Of a stretch of 64,000 nucleotides of DNA, positions 1 through 23,962 are shown one piece after another. Origin of the DNA: Escherichia phage vB_EcoM-813R1. Positions within the stretch are counted from its first letter, which is position 1, and the number at the start of each line of letters is the position of its first letter. The stretch lies in sequence record ON470617.2; one strand, given 5' to 3'. The translations under genes and the position numbers were made by a program. The notes beneath the pieces are model-generated. The model was not told the DNA's origin, searched no databases, and saw nothing but the letters and a program-made list of their open reading frames with translations.

Positions 1-33
1 TCTTACAAGTTTGGTGAAAAAGGGAGGCGGGAA

Positions 34-477
34 ATGATTGGCTGGGGTGTATGCGTTCTTGCGTTAGCCTTAGCCGATCGCTATTTGCTAAAACGCAAGG
101 ACATCACGCATTTAGAACTTGGTGATGTGGAAATTAAACCGGGTTTCATCCGGGTGCCGTTCAAATACCGGTCTAAATTCCCGTTTTTGCGCGGCGCAAC
201 GGTCAGATATTGGATCCGCGATGTTCAGAAGCCGACGACAGTGATTGAAGGCGAACAACGTTGTTTGACGTCGGCTGAACAGGGCGAAAACAGTGAATGG
301 TTGTACATACCCACTGAATATATGGGTAAAGGAGAGCGACTGTGGCATTTCAACGTCATGGTTACGCATGGCGACTCGTTCATTAACCCGTTGTATCGGA
401 TTTTCCCTGTTACTCAGCAAATCCGCAGAAGTTACGTAATAAATCTCGCACAGGATGTGTCAGATGACGAAAAATAA
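34..477 (+). CDS. hypothetical protein, 147 aa; sits where P1 has lydB upstream of hdf-darA (positional guess only); the true start may lie upstream or outside the window
   Basis: Six-frame ORF 34..477; no motif recognised; synteny with the downstream hdf/darA block. Confidence 0.4.
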   Translation: MIGWGVCVLALALADRYLLKRKDITHLELGDVEIKPGFIRVPFKYRSKFPFLRGATVRYWIRDVQKPTTVIEGEQRCLTSAEQGENSEWLYIPTEYMGKGERLWHFNVMVTHGDSFINPLYRIFPVTQQIRRSYVINLAQDVSDDEK

Positions 478-1066
478 GTATGCAACGGTCGATTTTGACC
501 AGGTTAATGAAAAGGGGCTGAAATCCCTTATCGCGGCGATCAATAAAACCGGTGTTACGGTAATTGAGGTTGACTCCAGCAACCGCGCAACAACGAAAGA
601 TGGCGTTAAAGTTAAAACCGCAAAGCTGGTTCTTAACGACGGACAAATTCTTGCCATACAGGTAAACGATACTGGCGATATATCGTCTGTGAGGCTGAAT
701 GGAAAAGCTATTCCTAACGCTCAATCGCCGGATATCAAGACGCTTGGTACCGTCATGGGGCAAGCGGCCCGCAAAAACTCCGCAAAATTCCAGAAATCAC
801 TGATCGCCAAAGCGAAACGTGTTGCCAATCCGGTAGACAAGAAACCGGCAGTAAAATCCAACTTTCAGCGCCTGCAAGAGGCAAAACAGCGGAATGCTCA
901 GGTGGTTGCCGCTTATAAATCAGCGCAGAACTCGGTGTCTTTCAATCAACAGCAGATCACTGATTTGCGGGCGAAGCTGGATAAGGAGACAGGCCGACTC
1001 AATAACGAAAAGGCCCGAAATGGCGAACTCAAACGCCGTCTTAAGCAACTGAAAGCAGGAAATTAA
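455..1066 (+). CDS. hdf: Hdf-like protein (homolog of a DarA fragment), 203 aa
   Basis: ORF 455..1066; shares a conserved segment (…KNSAKFQ… followed by a K/R-rich coiled-coil stretch) with the 617-aa ORF immediately downstream; position upstream of darA. Confidence 0.55.
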   Translation: MCQMTKNKYATVDFDQVNEKGLKSLIAAINKTGVTVIEVDSSNRATTKDGVKVKTAKLVLNDGQILAIQVNDTGDISSVRLNGKAIPNAQSPDIKTLGTVMGQAARKNSAKFQKSLIAKAKRVANPVDKKPAVKSNFQRLQEAKQRNAQVVAAYKSAQNSVSFNQQQITDLRAKLDKETGRLNNEKARNGELKRRLKQLKAGN

Positions 1067-2986
1067 CATGGAACAGTTCAATATCAATAAAGGGGTGACG
1101 ATCAAGCCTGGGCTTGACGTGCTTCCCCGCCAGTGACTGATGATGAATATCGCGCATTAATGGCCGGTGAGGACCGCTATCTGATGACGGAATCCAACAC
1201 CCTGGAGGAAATCGAGGCTACGTTCTTCTATGACACGCCGATCCACTGGTGTGCTACGGATTTACTGGAGGCGATTAGTTCTACTCGTTTGCAGTTACAC
1301 CGGACCATGCAGGCATTTGTCCGGGCATTGAACCAGAAGCTGAATGGTACCGGAATCTCTGCGGGGAGTGATAAAACGGGGGATGTGGCCCAGAGCGGCG
1401 CGCGCGCGATCGGCGGCGCTGAAATTGGCCGGGCACGTAACGTTAACGGGCTGCCGGTCTTGCCAGCCATTATTCCGCTCAGTGATGGTCAGACTATCAG
1501 CATTCTGTTTCATAGCCCGACAGCGGAAAACCGGATCACCAATAGCGATACGCTGGTTGCTTTCCAGTTCTTACTGAATAAAAAAGACGTTACTCACACC
1601 GTTGCTCCGATGAGTGGACGTGATATGACGCTGGCGCAGGTCACCATGAAACTTGCCAACCTTGCAGAGAAAAACTCGGCAAAATTCCAGCGTGCGCAGA
1701 AGAAGAAAAAAGCCCTTGTTGATGAAATAACCCAACTACAGGCTGACAGTGACCAGAAAGAGGATGCCATGAGCGACCTCGCGGATCAGGTGGCAGCGGT
1801 AGAAGGGCAGAAGGCAGATCTGGAGCAGAAAATTAACGCTGTTGCATCGGAAGCGGATTCTCTTTATGAAGAGAATGAGCGTTTGCAGACGGAGATTGAT
1901 CAGCTCAATCGCACTGGTGGGCGCGATACCATTGCTCCAGCGGGGATGACTGGTGGGCACTCTCGCGCGCTGACGGATCGCCTTGCCAGTATCAAAAATC
2001 GTATGCATATGGACGGGGAAGTGACGCTCAGTAATGGTGCATCAATGAAGCAATTCATTGGGGGCGGCGAAGGGTATATCCAGTTAACCGATCCGGATGG
2101 CAGCGTATACATGATCAAGGCTAAATCCATACAGGGTGTGGACATGGCAGATGCGATCGGCAAGCTGTTTAAAGCCTATAAAGCGGGTAATGTATCGGAA
2201 TACCTGGTCCAACCAGAAGAACATAAACCGGAAAACGTCGAACCTGAACCAGCGGAGGATACCGGTAGCTCTTCGCCTGAACCAGAAGTCTCTGTAGGTG
2301 CATATCGATATGCCCTGCAAATGCGTCCGGCGGCCCCTGGCGCAATACCTGAAGGTAACAAAGCAATTCTGCCGCGCCCTGATGAAGGTGACCCGTATTA
2401 TGAATATGCACGCTACGGCATTGCTACTTACGATACCCCGCTTTCTGATCAGCAAATGAGTGAGTACGACCTGAAGTTATTGCCTCGCGAGGATTCTTTC
2501 GACTTCCTGGCGAAGACACTTACTAATGGTCCGTTTGGCAAATATGCACAAAAAACTCTGGATCTGGCCACCAGCTCACCAGACGAGTTCCGCGTAATGC
2601 TGAAAACTCAGTTTCAAAAAACTTTCCCCAATATTGCGTTTCCGGGGGGCGCTGGCACCGAGAAAATGGTGCAGAGCATGATCAATACATTGCAGGCCGA
2701 AGTCGGTGAGATTACTCAGCCAGAACCGGCCCCGGCACAGCCTGATGAAACGGTTAGCGAAGCAGATGCAGAGGCTAATAAAGCCATTGAATATCTCAAT
2801 AACGTGATGGATATGCAAAGCACTGACATGGCGGAGATCCGTAACGCTCGGGGCAATGTCCGGGAAGCGATTGCAGCCCTTCAGGCTGCCGGACGTTTTG
2901 AGGAAAACGAAGAGCTGGTTAACGGCGCAGCTCGCCACCTGGCTGATCTGTTGGTAGCAATCCAGAAAGCGGGGGTAGCGGCATGA
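1067..2986 (+). CDS. darA: DarA-like antirestriction head protein; reading frame interrupted near 1125..1135
   Basis: 617-aa ORF 1133..2986 plus a 22-codon ATG-initiated ORF at 1067 in another frame; combined length ~639 codons; internal similarity to the hdf product; operon synteny hdf-darA-ddrA-ddrB. Confidence 0.55.
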
Positions 2987-3348
2987 CACTATCAGCTATT
3001 GAGTTAATGGATCTCAGCGATAAGTTGGATGCTCTGATGTCCAAAGCGGCTACCGCGAGTGGCATGGAGTTGCTGGATATCAGCGATGAAATTGACCAGA
3101 TCATGCAACAGATGGGGTACGGTGTGTCCGGCGGCAGTAGTGGCGAGGAAAAACAACCTTCGGTACATGATGGTGTGCCAAAACTGGTTGCTGATTTCCT
3201 GGCTGATAAATTCGTCGATCAGAGCACCGATGCATTTATCGGTACGTTACAGGACTTGAGTCAATATGTTGGCACATACATCGACCTGGACCAGGTTAAA
3301 CAGCACACGGCGGCATGGATAGCCGCCAACATTAAAGAGGCAGCGTGA
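2983..3348 (+). CDS. ddrA: DdrA-like small protein, 121 aa, start overlaps the darA stop
   Basis: ORF 2983..3348; 4-nt start/stop overlap with darA suggests translational coupling; position. Confidence 0.45.
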   Translation: MTLSAIELMDLSDKLDALMSKAATASGMELLDISDEIDQIMQQMGYGVSGGSSGEEKQPSVHDGVPKLVADFLADKFVDQSTDAFIGTLQDLSQYVGTYIDLDQVKQHTAAWIAANIKEAA

Positions 3349-3354
3349 CATCCT

Positions 3355-3374
3355 CCACGCCCCGAAGGGCGTGG
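3355..3374. terminator. GC-rich hairpin (ccacgccc-cgaa-gggcgtgg) just after the ddrA stop; could equally be the subterminal hairpin of the adjacent IS end
   Basis: Perfect 8-bp inverted repeat with a 4-nt loop read directly from the sequence. Confidence 0.4.
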
Positions 3375-3387
3375 ATTCCTGCTACGT

Positions 3388-4595
3388 TCAGGCTGTCGCC
3401 TGAATCATTTCGGTGGGTTCCTGCTTCAACGGGCGGCCTGACTGCACCATCCCTCCACAGGCAAGTACGGCGTGCCCCGCCGCTAAAATGTTACGAGCGC
3501 CGTTTACATCGGCGTTCGCTGTATATCCACATACCTGGCATCTGAATTTACTTTGTGACAGGCGATTTTCTTTCGCTGTATGACCACAGCACGCGCAACG
3601 CTGGCTTGTGTACGCTGGCGGAACAGCAAGCACCTGACCGCCACGCCAGAGCTGCTTGTACTCAAGCTGGCGGCGCATTTCATACCAGCCCTGATCCAGT
3701 ATCGAACGGTTTAAACCTGATTTTGCCCGGACATTGCGACCCGGATGACTTATCGTTCCCGCCGCTGACTTTGACATGTATTTAACCTTCAAATCCTCAA
3801 TGACAATCATTGCGTGGTTTTTGCTGACGGTCGTTGTGACTTTGTGAAGGTAGTCCCTGCGGATATTTGCGATACGGGAATGCAGTCGCTGTATTTTGCG
3901 TTTCTGCTTCTGCCAGTTGTTGCTGAATTTGACCTTGCGGCTTAACTGTCGCTGAAGTCTCGCCAGCTTCTTCTGGTTTTTCTGAAAACTATTTACAGGT
4001 TCAAAGACTGTGCCATCTGACAGCGTGGCGAGTTTAGCCACGCCAGCATCCAGTCCGACCATTGATGCTGAAGGGTGAACAGGAGTGGATACCTCTCTTT
4101 CTGTCTGAATACTGATGTACCACTTACCGCAGGACTGGCTGACAGTAACATTTTTCACAATACCCGTGACCTGACGGCTATTCCGGTAGCGCATCCAGCC
4201 AAGTTTCGGCAGAAAAATACGGCTGTTTTCCTGATCGAGCTTAACACCCTGCGGGTAGCGGAATGCATCATTCTGTCCCCGCTTTTTGAATCGGGGAAAA
4301 GCTGCCCGATTCTGGAAGAAGTTTTTGTAAGCCCGCTCAAGGTCTTTCAGTGACTGTTGCAATGGCTGTGAGGGAGAATCTTTAAGCCATTCGGTTTCAG
4401 TGTCTTTTTCCACTCAACCAACCAGGAAGCCATTTTCGTGTAAGGGATGTATTTTTTACCGGCCTCATGATTCTCATTCTGAAGCGCCAGAGCACGGTTG
4501 AAAACGAAACGACAAGCTCCGGCAAAGCGCCTCATTTGATGCTCCTGTTGACCATCTGGTTTTAACCGGAATTTGAATGACACCTGTTGTTTCAT
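3388..4595 (-). CDS. tnpB: TnpB (IS605 OrfB-type RNA-guided endonuclease); frame broken near 4400 in an A-run
   Basis: 341-aa C-terminal ORF with RuvC-like region and zinc finger (…[37 protein letters not shown]…) plus 82-aa N-terminal ORF ([37 protein letters not shown]…) in a different frame. Confidence 0.85.
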
Positions 4596-4693
4596 GTCAC
4601 TATTTTAAGCAAAAATAGCCGGGAGGAAAACTGTGCCTTATATCCCCACTATGAGGAGCGTAGGGGCGGCACATTGGATAAGGCGTAACAGGG

Positions 4694-7680
4694 ATGAGCT
4701 TAAGCGATCAGGTGGTAATGGCCACCAGCATAGAAACGCTGATCGAGCTGCTAAAGAACCTGCCCGATTATGGGCGGGTTTCGTATGTGGTGACAGCGAA
4801 GGGAGACGAGGTAAAAACAGCGTTTGATATCGTCGATGCCTCAGCTATTTTGGTATCCAATACTCTGGATGGGAAAATTAATCCTGACTATCCCCGGGAA
4901 CTTCAGCCGCGCGACCGGACCCGCGCATCCAGCCTTCTTCAGGTTAACCAGATATCCAAAGATTTGCGGCCTGCTCAGCTTACCGATTCCGGATTATCCA
5001 GCCATGGCGCACCGATAATTGGTGAGGACAATGCAGTTGAGTCAGGTAATGGACGTACCATGGGGATCATTAAAGCCTATCAGGACGGTAATGCGGATCG
5101 GTATCGGGAGTACCTGATTGAACATGCGACCGAATTCGGCATACGTACTGAAAAGGTTGAATCAATGACGGCTCCGGTACTGGTGCGCCGCCGGTTAACG
5201 AAGGTTGACCGCGTTCAGTTTGCCAAGGACTCAAATATTTCTGATCTTCAGGAAATGGCAGCCAGTGAAAAGGCTTTTGTTGATGCCGACAGCATAACAC
5301 CGGCGATGATGGCGCTGTTTAATCCGTCAGAAAGCGGAGATCTGCTTAGCCGCAGTAATGACGCGTTTATTCGCGGATTCATGACGCAAGTTGGTGCCAC
5401 ACAGGCTGCTGGCCTTGTAACGGAAGATGGGCGACCAACACGGCAACTTGTTGACCGTATACAAAACGCGATCTTTGCCAAGGCATATAAGGATGCGCGC
5501 CTGGTAAGGATGGTTGCAGAAGAACCTGATCCGGATATGCGTAATGTTCTGACGGCGCTTAATGCGGCAGCCAATGATTTTGTCCAGATGCAGGCTTTAT
5601 CAGGAGAAGCGCACAAGCAGGCTGTGACAACTATTGTTGATGGCATTGAGACAGCGGATAGCCTCGATAAAAAGGCGCTGGCGGCATTGAAAGATGCGGT
5701 AGACCTGGTAAGGCAATCGAAGGAGTCAGGCCAGCATATTACCGATGTTATTGCTCAGGGGGATATGTTCAGCGAAACAGCCCCGGAAGTGAAAGCTCTC
5801 GCGTTGTTCATCGTCGCGAATAACCGTAGCGCGAAGCGTATGGCCACCGCCTTTAAATTGATGGCTCAACGTATCAATGATGAGTTACAGCACCAGGGCC
5901 AGGCGCTGGGGGATATGTTTGGCGGTGGTGATGTGTCGTTACAGGATATCCTTCGCCAGGTGTCTCAGGAACTGGAAAACGAAGGCATGCAAGGGATATC
6001 CGGCGGTCTTTTCGAGTCCGTTTCCGGCGGTAGTTACAACGGTGTTGCTCCATATACCAGCTTGCTATTACATCGGGCATCCGGCATCAAAGACATTATT
6101 CATCTGATCAGGCTGCTTTCCCGTACAGATCCCCAGGATGAACAGCTTGTACAAGTGCTTGCGCATTTTGTTCGAATGCCTGTTGCCGACGTGAATAAAT
6201 GGTGCCGATTATTCGGTATCAGCAATTCGTTACTTCGCGGCTTGTTAAATCACGCATCCTCCCTTGGGCGCGATGGCTTTGACGAGATAGCGCAGGCGAT
6301 AAAAAACGGAGATATGCCACCAGCTATTGACTGGTTTTCCATTCGCCCAACCAGGGTGAAAGCATTCCTTAGCGCGGCGCATTCGGCATCACCATTGGCA
6401 GAAATGGTTCAGAGGTTGTCGCTCATATTCACAGACCATACCGCGTTGGGTGATCTGACTCTGGACGAGATGAAAGAAGCCTCCATTCAGTGGGCCGATC
6501 AACAAAATGAGGTTAACTCAGACTTCTTGCCAGCATTCAGGAAGGCCGTTAGTAAAGCGGATGATGCCCGTGGAATTCTGAAGGCATTTAAGGCATTGCA
6601 AAGTCGTGTTAATAAACATGTCGGTGATATCGATGGGGTAACGGCGGAAGGCCGGGATATCCTTAAAGAGCACGGCATAACGCCAGAGTTTATTGATGAG
6701 ATCAGGACTGATATGCAGCGTGAGGTCGTATCGTCCCTGCAAATCGTAGCCAGAGCGTTGGCGGATGCTAATCCGAAGAGTGCGGCCATTGTTAACCGGG
6801 TTATTGGTGATATTGAAGCATCGGAGGGCATGGGGGCGCTGAAACTCTTCCTGTCGCGAGCGTTTAATCCTAACGGCAATATTCTCCTGGCATTATTGGT
6901 GAGGCTAAAAAGTATGTCAGTGAAGAAGAACTTGAGCAGCTTGACCAACTACTTAAGCGATTCTCATATAACCCGCAGACACGCTGGCAAATGAATCAGC
7001 GAAGTATGGGTTCGGTCCACGAGAAAGTGTTATCTGCCATGAACAGTGCGATCGCAAACTCATCCGTATCTGAAGAAAAAGCTCTTGAGTGGGCCGACTC
7101 TTTTATCACGGAAGAAGTGGAAGAAGCCCGCGCTGGACAGAATGGTGGGATAGACCTGCGCAAGGAACTTGCTGATATTTATCGCCTGACCGGCGGGAAA
7201 ATATCGACCTTATCAAAAGTGGTTCACCACCAGGGAAGGGCATATGCAAATCTAAATGGTGTTGTTGCTGTCAATTTGAACGATGAAAATGCAAGTGCAC
7301 TGTGGCACGAGCTGGGTCATCATCTTGAGTACAGTAACCCTGGTTTGTTAGAGAAAGCCCGGTCATTCCTGAAGGCCAATGTTGAAGGGGATAAGCCATC
7401 TTTCGTCAATATCGGTGGGCGTGGCAAGCCTGAATGGTGCTTCAGATCTCGATTGAGTAATATTTATATGGCGAAGGTATACCCGCCAGCCTCAGTAAGT
7501 AACACCGGGAAAATTCGGCAGAAATCACCGACTATTTCCAAAACGTCAGCAACGGAAGTATTCTCTATGGCTCTTCAGTTGTATCATGACAAAGAGGCCG
7601 CTGCCGCATCACTGATGAATGGTGACGGATTGCTGGAACTGTTATTAGGTGTGGCAAAGGAGCTAAATAATGCAGATTAA
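4694..7680 (+). CDS. ddrB: DdrB-like large protein (~990 aa); frame interrupted near 6890; N-terminal region has a ParB/Srx-like motif (…YPRELQPRDR…)
   Basis: 766-aa ORF 4694..6994 continues as readable protein in the frame of ORF 6991..7680 when shifted by one base near 6890 (…EEELEQLDQLLKRFSYNPQTRWQMNQRSMGSVHEKV…); position after ddrA. Confidence 0.45.
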
Positions 7681-7978: not shown

Positions 7979-7980
7979 AG

Positions 7981-8008
7981 AAATCCCGCCAATCGGCGGG
8001 ATTTTTAC
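7981..8008 (+). terminator. rho-independent terminator (aatcccgcc-aatc-ggcgggatt followed by a T-run)
   Basis: 9-bp stem plus T-tract read directly, immediately after the 7978 stop. Confidence 0.55.
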
Positions 8009-8032
8009 CTCACGAGAAGCTTTTTTCTGATG

Positions 8033-9103
8033 TCAGCCAACAGTGCTCGTGCAAATCTCTTGGTGGTTTTTCGACAAATGCCTCTTCAGCCACATCCTGC
8101 CAGGGATTTGTTTAGCCCATTCAGCTATAGCGTTATGGTTTGCCGAGAATAACGGTATTGTATAGGCCTTCAGCCAGTCTAATGTGCTGGAGTTGTGTTT
8201 TTGAGCGTGATGTTTCGCATGGTGTTTGGCGATCACGATCGTAGGCACTACCCATTTACTACCGTCAGTCATTGTGAAGTGCATATTACGGGGAACAGAT
8301 GACTTTTCCATCAACTCCCGAATCCCGGGAAATTTCCCCAAGATCAATCGGCGATATTCATCGCTATTGCGCCCACCAAACTCTTTGGCTTTGAATTCAA
8401 GATATGCTTCAGAAACGAGAGGTGAATCCTCTGTGTTTAGAGTTATCGCCGTGAAAAAACCAGCAGGATTGTTTTTACTATGGGCCAACCGGTGATGCGA
8501 ATCATAAAAGTACCCTTTCTCGCGTTCCGATGGTTTCGACAGCAACAGCAGGCGCGAGTCATAATTGGTTAAATTGCCAGTTATCACTGCATGAGCGCGA
8601 TCGCTGATTTCCGCCGAGTTAATAACGATGAAAAGATCGTGCGGTCCAGTAAAACCAGCCAGAGACTCTTCGTTATTCAGACAATAGGTTATATAGACGC
8701 ATCCCCATGTTTCACTGATATGCACCAACCCTTTGTCAGGGTGTATTCTGAAATAATTGCCAAGAAAAGGGTGTTTTTGGGTAACTCGCTCCCAATAACG
8801 GAACATATAGTCAATTATTGTTTTTCGACTATCGTTAATCGCAGGAGAAACAACCACTGTACGGGAACACGAATACAGTATTGTTTGCAGGATGCTAATC
8901 ACTGCCACAATAGAGGTTTCCCCAATACCATGTGGTGTGGTGGCAGTGACTTTGGCTCCGGTGTTCTTTATCGCGTTAATAATTTTTGCTTGATGAGGTG
9001 TTAACTCAATATCAAGCAACTCTTTTGCTGCCAGTTCCCAATTGTCTTTATACCGTTCTATCAGTGCTAACCAGGCAGATTCATTCTGTATACGATTAAT
9101 CAC
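8033..9103 (-). CDS. terminase large-subunit-like ATPase paralog, 356 aa, no nuclease domain, degenerate Walker A
   Basis: Clear similarity to the ATPase half of PacB in this window (e.g. LLLSKPSEREKGYFYDSHHRLAHSKNNPAGFFTAITLNTEDSPLV vs [44 protein letters not shown]); Walker A position reads HGIGETS (no lysine) where PacB has GHGTGKSD. Confidence 0.6.
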   Translation of the reverse strand: MINRIQNESAWLALIERYKDNWELAAKELLDIELTPHQAKIINAIKNTGAKVTATTPHGIGETSIVAVISILQTILYSCSRTVVVSPAINDSRKTIIDYMFRYWERVTQKHPFLGNYFRIHPDKGLVHISETWGCVYITYCLNNEESLAGFTGPHDLFIVINSAEISDRAHAVITGNLTNYDSRLLLLSKPSEREKGYFYDSHHRLAHSKNNPAGFFTAITLNTEDSPLVSEAYLEFKAKEFGGRNSDEYRRLILGKFPGIRELMEKSSVPRNMHFTMTDGSKWVVPTIVIAKHHAKHHAQKHNSSTLDWLKAYTIPLFSANHNAIAEWAKQIPGRMWLKRHLSKNHQEICTSTVG

Positions 9104-10004
9104 TTTCCACCTCTTCCGTGGTGTTTTCTTGCAGTTCTGTTAATGCAGCACGACATAGGTTCCGGGCATTGGCTATAGCCACACTTTTGACTTCATCCGT
9201 CATCGTGCAGGTAATGTACTGATCGAGTTCTTCAGCGCGGATGATGCTTTTGCCAATCAGAAACTGTATTTGCCATAGCAGATCGGCATCCATAATCAGA
9301 ATTTCTGCCGGGCCTTCAGGGCCAGCCGGGAAGGAAACATAAGACTGTTTGCCCAGGCCGACAACTCGACAACTTGCTTCAAGAATTGCGCGCTTGAGGT
9401 CTGACTTTATAACGGAAACAGGTTGATTTTCACCAGTGATTACGCCGTTGACATGGAAAGGCATGTAGCTTGAAATACGCTCCACTTTCCACACGCCAGC
9501 AAGCGATCCTTCATGCAGCACAATGGGGGTAACCGCGAGTTTCATCTCACCATATAACTGCTGGCAGATAGCTGGATTGCTGAATACATCTAAAGGCTCA
9601 CATTCAAACAGCGGCGCAATCTGCATGAGGTCCATCATGGTCATCCCTGGGGTACGAGCAGTAATGAATTTGCGCATACCAGTATCCATTGCGCTCCAGA
9701 TTGCTACACCATGCTTTTTGCTCACTTCTTCAGTAAAGCCAAGGTGGCACATGATGGTTTTTTCGATAGCCAGATCGGAGATAGAAACCTTTTCGCCAGG
9801 TACACCATCATTATTGATGGTCACTTCGACACTCTGGCCATTACGCAGGCGGTATTGAATTGTTTTAGTATTTTGTGCTGCCATAGTCTTTTCTCTGCTT
9901 AAAAACTGATGTATTGCGCCTTCAGGTGGGTCAGGAATGTTTTCCCACCAGCGAAAGCAATATCTCGGGGTGTTCTGTTCGTTAAAAACGCGTTCCATTG
10001 CCAA
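9096..10004 (-). CDS. hypothetical protein, 302 aa
   Basis: ORF 9096..10004, same strand as and overlapping the start of the terminase-like paralog; no motif recognised. Confidence 0.5.
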   Translation of the reverse strand: MAMERVFNEQNTPRYCFRWWENIPDPPEGAIHQFLSREKTMAAQNTKTIQYRLRNGQSVEVTINNDGVPGEKVSISDLAIEKTIMCHLGFTEEVSKKHGVAIWSAMDTGMRKFITARTPGMTMMDLMQIAPLFECEPLDVFSNPAICQQLYGEMKLAVTPIVLHEGSLAGVWKVERISSYMPFHVNGVITGENQPVSVIKSDLKRAILEASCRVVGLGKQSYVSFPAGPEGPAEILIMDADLLWQIQFLIGKSIIRAEELDQYITCTMTDEVKSVAIANARNLCRAALTELQENTTEEVESD

Positions 10005-10086
10005 CTTTGGCGTTTTTTAGCGAGTTCGTGCTTTTGTTGGCGTTTGGACCACCGCTTTTCTTTCAGTCGTTTTTTACTCATAAACT

Positions 10087-10575
10087 CTAAAACGGAATAT
10101 CGTCTTCAAAGTCCATTGGAGGTTCGTTATTGGCGCTGCTCTGAGGTTTGCCACCACCGCTGTATTGCTGGTGGTTTTGAGGTTGGTTTGACTGCCCCCA
10201 GCCATTTGAGGACTGTGAATCGTCGCGGCGAGCGCCGATCATTTGCATGGTGCCGCCCTGGCTGACGATAATTTCCGTCGTGTAACGTTCTACACCGGCG
10301 TCATCTGCCCACTTACGGGTTTTAAGTTTCCCTTCGATGTAGACCTGAGAACCTTTTCGTAAATACTCACTCGCAATTTCAGCAAGTTTTCCGAACAAAA
10401 CGACTTTATGCCATTCTGTTTGCTCTTTCTGTTGGCCCGTTTGCTTGTCGCGCCATGATTCATTCGTTGCGATGCTGAGTCTTCCGACCGCGCCGCCATT
10501 TGGTATATACCTGATCTCCGGGTCTTGCCCCAGGGTGCCAATCAGGATGACTTTGTTTACACCGCGTTGTGCCAC
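10087..10575 (-). CDS. ssb: single-stranded DNA-binding protein
   Basis: OB-fold N-terminus ([23 protein letters not shown]…), Gly/Gln-rich linker and acidic C-terminal tail …DFEDDIPF. Confidence 0.95.
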
Positions 10576-21186: not shown

Positions 21187-21627
21187 ATGGCCACACTATC
21201 TGATACAATAAAACCGAATAAAACATATCTTGAGGCGGTACTGCGTACAGCGTTGTTAGGAAAGACAGAAGACGAATACGTTGATTTCTTCCTGTCAGGG
21301 CTACGCGGGCGATTACTGAAAAATCCCCGCCTGTACCGCAGCTATGGTCCATACTGGCCGGAAATTAAAAAATTATTACTGGAGCGCGGTTATGGTAATT
21401 TCGGTCGTCTCGTTGACCGTGACGTTCGCAAAATTTACCGTTATGACCGCCCGGCGCTAACACTCATAGCCGCGACGCTCTACAGCCAGGAGCGTTTTGA
21501 TAATGGTCAGATATACTCAGCCTGGCATTTACTGCCAGTGCCTGAAGAAGTTGACGACCAGGACTATGAGTTTGAGTCTTACGATTTGGAAGTTGAAGCC
21601 TTGGCACAGGCTGGAGAGAAAACTTGA
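21187..21627 (+). CDS. hypothetical protein, 146 aa (P1 ulx position)
   Basis: ORF immediately downstream of darB; positional assignment only. Confidence 0.5.
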   Translation: MATLSDTIKPNKTYLEAVLRTALLGKTEDEYVDFFLSGLRGRLLKNPRLYRSYGPYWPEIKKLLLERGYGNFGRLVDRDVRKIYRYDRPALTLIAATLYSQERFDNGQIYSAWHLLPVPEEVDDQDYEFESYDLEVEALAQAGEKT

Positions 21628-21842
21628 AAAAGCGATACTACACAGTAAAGCATGGGACGCTACGAGCATTACAAGAGTTTGCTGACAAGCATAACGTTGA
21701 GGTGCGCAGGGAAGGGGGAAGTAAAGCTCTGCGCATGTACCGTCCGGACGGGAAATGGCGTACGGTCGTCGATTTCAAAACTAACAGCGTTCCCAGGGCG
21801 TCCGTGACCGGGCATTCGAAGAATGGGAGCAGATCATCATAG
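21624..21842 (+). CDS. hypothetical protein, 72 aa (P1 lxc position)
   Basis: ORF with 4-nt overlap to the upstream gene, upstream of mod; positional assignment only. Confidence 0.4.
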   Translation: MKKRYYTVKHGTLRALQEFADKHNVEVRREGGSKALRMYRPDGKWRTVVDFKTNSVPRASVTGHSKNGSRSS

Positions 21843-22022
21843 ATAATGCATTGCTTCTCAATGCGGATTAAACTTCCCCAAATTATGGCTGTTTGCTCAC
21901 CGAGCATCGCTCAAAGAAGCACGATTCTTCAAACATATAGATAGTGATAGTGCCACAACTTCTGGCTCTAACGGGCTGGGGAGGCGGCGCTTTGTTGCTA
22001 AATGATCTGGTTTAAAATGGAT

Positions 22023-23962
22023 ATGAAAAAAGAAACGATTTTTTCCGAAGTAGAAACGGCTAACAGCAAGCAACTGGCTGTGTTGAAAGCTAATTTCCCA
22101 CAGTGTTTTGATAAAAACGGAGCCTTCATTCAAGAAAAATTGCTTGAGATTATTAGAGCATCGGAGGTTGAACTCTCTAAAGAATCATACAGTTTAAACT
22201 GGCTGGGTAAATCTTATGCCCGTTTGTTGGCCAATCTACCACCGAAAACGTTGTTGGCAGAAGATAAAACACATAACCAACAAGAAGAGAACAAGAACAG
22301 TCAAAACCTGTTAATCAAAGGGGATAACCTCGAAGTATTGAAGCATATGGTTAATGCTTATGCTGAAAAGGTGAATATGATTTACATTGACCCACCATAC
22401 AATACGGGTAAAGATGGATTCGTCTATAACGATGATCGCAAGTTTACACCAGAACAGCTTTCTGAACTGGCAGGTATCGAGCTTGATGAGGCTAACCGCA
22501 TACTTGAATTTACCACCAAGGGTTCAAGCAGTCATAGTGCATGGCTGACATTCATTTATCCTCGTCTTTATATTGCACGTGAACTTTTAAAAGAGGATGG
22601 AGTAATATTCATCTCCATAGACGATAACGAAGATAAACAGTTGGGATTATTATGCGACGAAGTATTTGGGCAAGGTAATTTTGTTGCAAAACTCCCTACA
22701 ATCATGAATCTCAAAGGCAATCATGATAACTTTGGCTTTTCAGATACGCATGAATATATATATGTATACGCTAAAAACAAAGATGTTTGTAGTTTGGGGC
22801 AATTCGATATTGATGAAAGTGAAGTTGAAAAAGAGTGGGATGAAGATGAATATGGGCTATTTAAAAGAGCTGATACATTAAAGCGTACTGGCCAAGATGC
22901 TTTTAGAAAATCAAGACCAAAAGGTTGGTTTCCGGTATTCATCAATTCAGAAAATAAGGTTTATGTAACAGATGATGATAAACCTCTTAACGAAGATGAC
23001 TATGTACTTTACCCAGTAAGCCCTACGGGTGAAGAGCTTTCATGGTCGTGGGGAAAGAAAAAATAAATGATGAGTTTTATAATCTAATAGTAATAGATAT
23101 AAAAGATGGTAAAAATATCTATAAAAAACAGCGGCCTGCTCTTGGAGAGCTACCAACTAAAAAGCCAAAATCAATTTGGTATAAACCTGAATATAGTACA
23201 AGCACGGCGACAACTGAGCTTAAAAATCTTTTAGGTGCAAAATTATTTGAAGGACCAAAACCTGTTCCTCTTATAACCGATCTTGTAAAAATAGGAACAA
23301 AAAAGGATTCATTAGTTCTTGACTTTTTTGCTGGCTCTGGTACGACAGCAGAAGCTGTTGCATATTTAAATGAAAAAGATTCAGGCTGTAGGAATTTTAT
23401 ATGCATACAAAAAGATGAAGTTATAAATAAAACAAAGAATGCCTATTCTCTTGGCTATAGATCTATTTTTGAAATAACAAAAAAAAGGATACAGGAGGTA
23501 TTTAAAAAAAGCACAACCACAAGTGATAATGCGGCTAAAATAGGTTTCAAAGTGATTCATACTATTGATGACTTTAGAGCAAAAGTTGAGTCTGAACTTA
23601 CGCTCACTAATCATACATTCTTTGATGATGCGGTATTAACGCCTGAACAGTATGATGCCCTATTGACTACATGGTGTGTATATGATGGTAGCTTGTTAAC
23701 AACACCTATTGAAGATGTTGATCTTAGTGGCTATACAGCACACTTTTGCAATGGCCGTCTGTATTTGATTGCACCTAATTTTACTAGCGAAGCATTGAAA
23801 GCGTTGCTCCAAAAGCTGGATTCAGATGAAGATTTTGCCCCAAACAAAGTCGTGTTTTATGGTTGTAACTTTGAAAGTGCAAAACAAAGGGAGCTTAATG
23901 AGGCGCTAAAAAGTTATGCTAACAAAAAATCTATTGAGTTAGATTTAGTGGTAAGGAACTAA
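22023..23962 (+). CDS. mod: Type III restriction-modification methyltransferase Mod (EcoP1I-like); frameshift in an A6 run at about 23055
   Basis: ORF 22002..23066 with the DPPYN catalytic motif and ORF 23042..23962 with the AdoMet motif DFFAGSGTT; junction …SWSWGKKK* / …KEKINDEFYN… differs by one A in a homopolymer. Confidence 0.85.

Follow-up and report, generated by a model that had tools for sequence, protein, structure and literature searches.

A tnpA-less, IS609-related tnpB element in the ddrA-ddrB junction of a P1-like phage, with a predicted omegaRNA directed at the empty site

Using a 64,000-nucleotide (nt) stretch of Escherichia phage vB_EcoM-813R1 (ON470617.2; hereafter, the window), we analyzed an insertion sequence (IS) located on the minus strand between ddrA and ddrB, two genes of the hdf-darA-ddrA-ddrB operon. 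We consider it likely that this element belongs, as a non-autonomous member, to the IS609 lineage within the IS200/IS605 family; it is inserted at TTAT, and an RNA-guided nuclease with its omegaRNA is the proposed mechanism. The first-pass annotation of this DNA had described a solo tnpB, without tnpA, on the minus strand between ddrA and ddrB, and this description holds. The open reading frames (ORFs) of tnpB match the Pfam families OrfB_IS605 (1e-34), Cas12f1-like_TNB (2e-24) and HTH_OrfB_IS605 (2e-17), and the intact 402-aa TnpB of phage RCS47 aligns with the solved structure of ISDra2 TnpB over residues 5-376 (E = 9e-52). These matches are far stronger than chance would give. The assignment to the IS200/IS605 family also stands. 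Both ends of the element are recognizable and homologous to the ends of IS609.

The limits of the element were obtained by comparing its junctions with the empty site of phage P1, GAGGCAGC/ATAAGGCG, in which the slash marks the insertion point. By this comparison, the whole insert, i.e., the left end (LE), tnpB and the right end (RE), occupies positions 3345-4677 on the minus strand, which replaces the span of 3350-4690 proposed earlier. The insert is 1333 bp long in the window and 1335 bp in intact relatives, and the spacing between ddrA and ddrB is 1345 bp in the window, compared to 12 bp in P1. Along the minus strand the layout is ...CGCCTTAT / CCAATGTGCCGC... tnpB ...GGAGGATGTCAC / GCTGCCTCTTT.... 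No target bases are duplicated when the occupied site of the window is compared with the empty site of P1, and the two ends, which are unrelated to each other, form no terminal inverted repeats. Both ends contain subterminal imperfect palindromes, as is characteristic of IS200/IS605 elements. LE, together with the short leader to the tnpB ATG, spans 4596-4677 on the minus strand (CCAATGTGCCGC..GGGGATATAAGGCACAGTTTTCC) and forms an imperfect hairpin within GTGCC..GGCAC, with compensatory differences among alleles. It aligns with LE of IS609 from E. coli K-12 and with that of a compact element on plasmid NZ_CP028585.2; the G-run at 4663-4666 is one G shorter than in relatives. RE contains a 9-bp hairpin (fold z = -3.0).

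Directly 5' of LE, at 4678-4681 on the minus strand, the flank reads TTAT in a CTTAT context. Among 30 related loci, the corresponding flank is TTTAT in 14, TTTAC in three, GTTAT in two, CTTAT in two and ATTAC in one; the remaining eight differ, mostly because the same motif is shifted by one base or the end is poorly placed. From these flanks, TTAT/TTAY is read as the target motif and, at the same time, as the predicted target-adjacent motif (TAM). At the other end, all 40 other loci terminate in GGAGGATGTCAA, where homology ends exactly and unrelated DNA begins. The final base is A in each of these 40 loci, whereas all 13 copies sampled at the P1 site end in ...GTCAC, with C as the final base.

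Among the ORFs of the element there is no tnpA between LE and tnpB. The distance from the tip of LE to the ATG is 83 nt, compared to ~496 nt in full copies, and full-length relatives have, between LE and tnpB, an intact Y1 TnpA of 138-143 aa with the motif HVHLL. The element thus lacks the Y1 (HUH) TnpA of an autonomous IS200/IS605 element and, because tnpA is absent, is classified as a non-autonomous derivative of the IS609 family (IS200/IS605). The tnpA-less state is the commonest one for tnpB elements (PMC10055086).

The element was compared with the IS609 annotated in E. coli K-12, where insQ (b1432) is accompanied by yncK, a remnant of tnpA. The tnpB and RE of the element are 94.7% identical to those of IS609 over 1235 nt; ~57 nt of LE are homologous and have the GGGGATATAAGGC core in common (K-12, CCGGTGCGCCG..GGGGATATAAGGCGCGGTTTTCC; window, CCAATGTGCCG..GGGGATATAAGGCACAGTTTTCC); and the TTAT-type flank 5' of LE, the RE hairpin and the GGAGGATGTCA terminus are common to both. 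Unlike IS609, the element has no tnpA at all, its last RE base is C instead of A, and its first ~100 nt, including approximately the first five codons, represent a distinct variant. By the ISfinder convention, copies of the same IS have roughly 95% or more DNA identity. It should be noted that the value of 94.7% covers tnpB and RE only, LE being homologous but diverged and tnpA being absent.

Sequences of the tnpB/RE kind are present in 5015 of 5426 complete E. coli genomes. The LE of the element was found at 142 places in the E. coli genome set, 140 of them plasmid-borne, and the full-length matches listed lie on plasmids of approximately P1-like size. Intact tnpA copies of IS609 include that of E. 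coli FDAARGOS_401, where the NCBI name is IS609-family transposase. Compact LE-tnpB-RE arrangements, in which tnpA is either missing or cut down to 66 nt, were seen on E. coli plasmid NZ_CP028585.2 (2963-4300), with neighbors that look phage-derived, and on Citrobacter chromosomes; they occupy unrelated sites, with TTTAT or TTTAC beside LE each time. Sequences with 84-97% identity, covering 20-85% of the query, also occur in Morganella phage IME1369_01 and the filamentous phage If1 (ORF348); the phage collection also gave such matches in two short phage records, from Salmonella and E. coli, and, as a fragment of 291 nt, in Aeromonas phage AP1.

The tnpB gene, encoding a predicted RNA-guided endonuclease of the insQ type, was placed at 3388-4595 on the minus strand from ORFs, translations and Pfam matches. 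In relatives it encodes 402 aa. Its frameshift in the window had been missed at first: the gene is split there into two overlapping ORFs, one of 82 aa (4595-4347) with the helix-turn-helix domain and another of 341 aa (4413-3388) with the RuvC and zinc-ribbon domains, by the loss of a single T from the run at 4405-4409. The nearest public relative, plasmid pEC-16-35-3 (NZ_CP093228.1, IncY), has an intact 402-aa tnpB, and over 25 kb the window differs from this plasmid by 3 substitutions and 13 single-base deletions. All 13 deletions are in homopolymers, many of them at CCWGG (Dcm) sites; in window positions 1-25000 the sites include 1124, 4405-4409, 4663-4666, 6885, 8102, 15238, 15360, 16201, 17868, 20232, 21791, 23057 and 24134. 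The resulting apparent frameshifts affect darA (~1124), tnpB, ddrB (~6885), darB and other genes, and the G-run of LE was hit as well. Because this pattern of deletions is genome-wide and confined to homopolymers, the split of tnpB is most likely a long-read homopolymer assembly error. A genuine tnpB pseudogene was considered and is unlikely, as every one of the 13 indels relative to the nearest relative is a homopolymer deletion. In practical terms, it would be a mistake to treat the ORF breaks of the window (in tnpB, darA, ddrB and others) as pseudogenes, since they are likely to stem from errors in homopolymers. The domains of TnpB are complete in the intact allele of relatives, the window copy having the 1-nt homopolymer deletion. 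In an alignment to 9yyg inspected by eye, GLDAG, VIEDL, NADVNGA and two CxxC pairs fall at the places expected of the RuvC acidic residues and the zinc ribbon.

The minus-strand region 3345-3514, with a core from ~3491 to 3345, was predicted to be the omegaRNA scaffold from RNAalifold covariation and sub-threshold Rfam matches. It combines the final ~125 nt of the tnpB coding sequence with the 43-nt non-coding RE, and its 3' end consists of a hairpin, CCACGCCC-UUCG-GGGCGUGG, followed by AGGAUGUCAC. For this prediction, the final 180 nt of each of 41 related elements were aligned; the TnpB proteins of these elements are 50-93% identical to the query. RNAalifold yielded 46 pairs in 8 helices, with compensatory changes in 17, including one long-range helix between ACAUUU in the coding region and GGAUGU at the tip of RE. 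When the partners were slid by 1-3 columns, the fraction of paired cells fell from 96.1% to 39-49%, and the number of double-change cells fell from 85 to 5-26. On four of five measures, none of 500 shuffles came up to the value of the real alignment, and on the remaining one, the count of further pair types, four did so. Because most of the structure lies within the coding sequence, the covariation is not attributable to the DNA hairpin recognized by TnpA, helix 8 being the only ambiguous one.

The element thus has a conserved structured RNA across the 3' end of tnpB and RE, where an omegaRNA is expected and where the first-pass annotation had placed a guide RNA, and this RNA fits an omegaRNA. 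A permissive Rfam scan gave no family at its gathering score: the matches at 3332-3515 were to RAGATH-18 (28 bits, compared to a threshold of 44.9), HgcC (22.6 compared to 50) and the archaeal omegaRNA family sot0042 (17.8 compared to 88). Membership in RAGATH-18, HgcC or sot0042 was accordingly rejected, all scores being below gathering. The sot RNAs are regarded as omegaRNAs (PMC12558985).

The predicted guide segment is the flank directly 3' of the end of RE, from 3344 to ~3325 on the minus strand. It reads GCUGCCUCUUUAAUGU(UGGC) and is antisense to the final codons of ddrA, in agreement with the earlier proposal that the guide is encoded by the 3' end of ddrA. The empty site of P1 reads exactly as TTAT followed by the guide sequence (TTAT-GCTGCCTCTTTAATGT), and so does that of the most frequent empty-site plasmids; the predicted TAM and target can also be written out as TTAT-GCTGCCTCTTTAATGTTGGC. 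The only match to the guide target in the window is the occupied site itself, with the TCAC of RE in the place of the TAM. Because RE (..TCAC) occupies the TAM position, the element's own locus would be spared, in the manner usual for elements of this kind.

A terminator-like minus-strand hairpin at 3308-3328, TGGCGGCTATCCATGCCGCCG then TGTGCTGTTT, begins right after a 16-nt guide. This hairpin could set the 3' end of the omegaRNA, or it may be a coincidence within the ddrA coding sequence; the terminator scan that contains it was at shuffle expectation overall.

A further question is whether the element is an inert passenger, i.e., a dead, immobile relic that is kept by vertical descent and backbone recombination while TnpB and the omegaRNA stay idle at this locus. 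Consistent with such a relic are the lack of tnpA, the mutated terminal base of RE (TCAC, compared to the family-wide TCAA), which could block excision, the frameshift of tnpB in the window and the 15-nt in-frame deletion of one allele (pLH10-b-1-B); our literature search also returned no activity result for any IS609 TnpB. The frameshift, however, matches the genome-wide pattern of homopolymer errors described above. Moreover, tnpB is a full 1209-nt ORF in 12 of the 13 sampled occupied genomes, and that of the 13th, pLH10-b-1-B, is still in frame. The dN/dS ratio among the P1-site tnpB alleles compared is ~0.17-0.22, the catalytic and zinc motifs are at their expected positions (by eye), and the scaffold of the omegaRNA is undamaged and agrees with the structure of the family. 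The argument from ORF integrity is qualified by gene conversion, as chromosomal copies could in this way maintain the ORF with no selection at this site. On balance, we regard an inert relic as improbable and prefer the reading of a non-autonomous IS609-lineage element with an RNA-guided nuclease.

The element is polymorphic among P1-like genomes. In the phage collection it was found in RCS47 (NC_042128, 99.8% identity) and SJ46 (NC_031129, 96.3%), and the site is empty in P1, P7, JL22, phi456 and others. In PLSDB the junction region was recovered from 474 plasmids; it runs through unbroken (empty) in 383 and is broken at the insertion point in ~72-91, so the empty site that the first-pass annotation expected in relatives was recovered in P1, P7 and ~383 of 474 P1-like plasmids. 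The element is present in ~15-19% of P1-like plasmids and is not a feature of the backbone, because ~80% of these plasmids, as well as P1 and P7, have the empty site. It is, then, neither an ancestral backbone feature nor a fragment without recognizable ends, the two outcomes that would have spoken against the original proposal.

All 13 sampled occupied P1-like genomes have identical junctions, and the 13 copies share the unique terminal C of RE, a unique LE and a 5' coding variant (MKQQVSF..) that was not seen in chromosomal copies. The shared junction, final RE base and LE point to a single insertion event. The alternative is that the ddrA-ddrB junction is a hotspot that was struck several times by different IS609 variants. 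Under this scenario one would cite the differences among the element alleles, which reach 4.3% and exceed those of the flanks (at most 2.6%), and the fact that flank diversity does not fall beside the junction. However, the allele differences are arranged in blocks, several of which are identical to chromosomal IS609 of K-12, as is expected under gene conversion. For example, 12 single-nucleotide polymorphisms (SNPs) at approximately 895-951 of the element form a block in pHeN100, pM121-2 and pLH10-b-1-B that equals chromosomal IS609 of K-12; SJ46, pLAO38 and an E. albertii plasmid have another block, at ~118-182, that agrees with K-12 at 8 of 9 variable sites. These mosaic alleles indicate gene conversion between plasmid and chromosomal copies of IS609. 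In addition, a 4-nt target is expected to provide several hundred sites per ~95-kb genome (an estimate, not a count), and repeated strikes at exactly the same position would be unlikely. Given that the copies have their unique ends in common, and that SNP blocks equal chromosomal IS609, independent insertions were rejected, in favor of gene conversion, as the source of the ~4% allele divergence, and we consider recurrent insertion very improbable.

In seven genome pairs, the elements are 0-3 SNPs apart over 1335 bp, whereas the flanks differ by 23-70 SNPs per 2.7 kb, with the differences starting 40-400 bp from each junction. We found no hitch-hiking dip in flank diversity near the junction, and so there is no support for a recent sweep. 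The pattern of the seven pairs is expected from a single insertion combined with frequent backbone recombination and, equally, from TnpB-stimulated homing.

Some of the individual records deserve mention. In E. albertii pEA36_1 (NZ_CP117591.1), a P1-like plasmid, homology breaks off a few bases ahead of the ddrA stop, and unrelated DNA with gldA stands in the place of ddrB; rearrangement at the ddrA-ddrB junction thus looks more general. The record NZ_CP029117.1, a 120.8-kb "linear" plasmid, contains at 1-3253 a second, heavily frameshifted ddrA-tnpB copy, which looks like an untrimmed and unpolished assembly overlap, and not like a true duplication. Two empty sites depart from the predicted target: that of CP057689.1, TTAT-ACCGCCTCTTTAATAT, has two mismatches in the first three TAM-proximal positions, and that of NZ_CP019054.1 has one target mismatch, at position 12.

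Combining these results, we propose the following mechanism. The element inserted on the bottom strand, immediately 3' of TTAT and within the final sense codon of ddrA, without target duplication. The product of tnpB would be an RNA-guided nuclease, onto which the structured RNA would be loaded as its omegaRNA, with a guide of 16-20 nt transcribed from the adjoining ddrA sequence (GCUGCCUCUUUAAUGU...). The complex is predicted to cut DNA that contains TTAT followed by the guide sequence, i.e., the empty ddrA-ddrB junction of sibling or incoming P1-like genomes. Repair off the occupied copy would then copy the element in (homing, or drive), and where such a template is missing the empty genome would be lost. 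Moves to new sites would require the TnpA of IS609, supplied in trans from the host chromosome. For the steps of expression, loading, cutting and repair, this scheme draws on the established biology of TnpB and of OMEGA systems; PMC8612924 provides a precedent for the TnpB-omegaRNA mechanism, and TnpB homing has a precedent in the IS605 family of G. stearothermophilus (PMC10055086).

Several points weigh against this reading. The nuclease activity, TAM preference and omegaRNA expression of this particular TnpB are inferred by analogy, and the literature search found no activity data for any IS609 TnpB; one paper names IS609 among nine TnpBs selected and purified for testing, in a part that states no result. 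The tnpB of the window is frameshifted as given. The change of the final RE base from A to C might impair cleavage by TnpA or, conceivably, omegaRNA function, and helix 8 is also the DNA hairpin for TnpA, which leaves its covariation ambiguous and not specific to RNA. In addition, P1 plasmids are low copy, and therefore opportunities for drive would hinge on co-residence or superinfection. With these points in mind, we put forward only tentatively, and with more doubt than confidence, the possibility that the element serves P1-like phage-plasmids as a natural gene drive and as a weapon of exclusion. The TnpB-omegaRNA made from an occupied plasmid would then cut incoming or co-resident P1-like genomes that have the empty junction, and these would be destroyed or, through recombination with the resident copy, become occupied. 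If so, drive would explain why the seven pairs combine near-identical elements with diverged flanks, and if TnpB is active, the mismatched targets of CP057689.1 and NZ_CP019054.1 would be candidate cleavage-resistant alleles.

The insertion leaves both neighboring genes readable. The gene ddrA (2983-3348, plus strand) takes its last four bases, 3345-3348, from the RE of the element, which supplies the G of the final alanine codon and TGA; GCA TAA of P1 becomes GCG TGA, and the DdrA protein is unchanged at 121 aa. Consequently, the earlier statement that the 3' end of tnpB lies 40 bp from the ddrA stop is accurate for the tnpB stop codon (3388-3390, 40 nt from the ddrA stop at 3346-3348) and inaccurate for the element, which reaches into that stop. 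The gene ddrB (4694-7680, plus strand) has an untouched start region, 16 nt downstream of LE, and in the window is split by the homopolymer deletion near 6885. Over the stretch fetched, each of the 13 sampled occupied genomes has an annotated ddrB with no pseudogene flag, and the gene has its full length of 2988 nt in the three whole genes fetched (RCS47, SJ46 and pEC-16-35-3).

This arrangement brings up another alternative, in which the element has been co-opted as a regulator that tunes the anti-restriction operon, either by antisense transcription into ddrA and darA or by freeing ddrB from the late dar promoter. The element is convergent with the operon, its guide region is antisense to ddrA and is followed by the terminator-like hairpin at 3328-3308, and the insertion preserves the reading frames of both ddrA and ddrB. 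Preservation of the ddrA stop, however, needs no selection, as either TCAA or TCAC at RE would keep it. Promoter and terminator scans of the element were at chance level (3 found compared to 1.9 expected, and 2 compared to 1.8, from shuffles), and the scan showed no convincing plus-strand terminator in the element. Furthermore, ~80% of P1-like plasmids do without the element, and its nuclease motifs are present. TnpB-derived regulators (TldR-type proteins) are inactivated nucleases, unlike the TnpB of this element. A co-opted regulator is thus scarcely credible, and an IS609-lineage element with an RNA-guided nuclease remains the reading that we favor.

The IS content of the window differs from that of reference P1, as had been stated, although not in the manner given there. 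The IS1 of P1 had been placed between mod and lxc; in NC_005856 it lies between isaA and isaB (22626-23393). Its reported absence from the window was borne out. An IS5 inside mod of NC_005856 is also absent from the window. Between lxc and mod, the spacer of the window is colinear with that of P1 and 99.3% identical to it (region 21620-22220). In the compared region 7980-10090, the window contains an isaA homologue at ~9080-10052, 94% identical to that of P1, and its isaB side (ORF 8033-9103, minus strand) is unrelated to isaB of P1.

The closest counterparts of the element are the same insertion in other records: RCS47, SJ46 and more than 70 PLSDB plasmids share it with identical junctions, and the window copy is 99.8% identical to those of RCS47 and pEC-16-35-3 and 96.3% identical to that of SJ46. 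In those records it simply bears the name "insQ transposase IS605" or "RNA-guided endonuclease TnpB family protein", with ends, TAM, omegaRNA and target unannotated; the window copy differs in having two extra 1-nt homopolymer deletions. The element is thus ordinary in kind, its insertion is already annotated publicly, and the proposed mechanism follows the textbook; tnpB-only elements of the IS200/IS605 family count among the most frequent genes of bacteria. In the library searched, we found no paper describing the ddrA-ddrB insertion. The value of the case is modest and lies in its being a natural test case in a classic model phage, with about one fifth of the genomes occupied and the rest having a perfect TAM-plus-target. 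TnpB homing, drive and superinfection exclusion would be measurable between temperate phage-plasmids with existing strains and P1 genetics.

Compared to the ISDra2 TnpB-omegaRNA of Deinococcus radiodurans (8EXA, 8H1J), the TnpB of the element shows full-length protein homology (E = 9e-52). In the ISDra2 and G. stearothermophilus systems, (i) the RNA covers the 3' end of tnpB and RE, (ii) the guide comes from the right flank, (iii) the TAM is the transposase target motif beside LE, and (iv) the target is the scarless empty site; the same is predicted here. The TAM of ISDra2 is TTGAT. Unlike ISDra2, the element has TTAT as its apparent TAM, its host replicon is a low-copy phage-plasmid and not a chromosome, and its protein is known here from sequence. 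TnpB-driven gene drive of IS605 elements in plasmids was described by Mears et al. (bioRxiv 10.1101/2025.02.20.638934). As in that system, a plasmid-borne IS605-family TnpB element has a guide that matches the IS-free plasmid, and occupied and empty plasmids coexist. However, Mears et al. worked with ColE1, pSC101 and conjugative plasmids that had been engineered, and with an active IS that had its transposase, whereas the element in the ddrA-ddrB junction is natural, lacks tnpA and resides on a temperate phage-plasmid, and its drive is a prediction from sequence.

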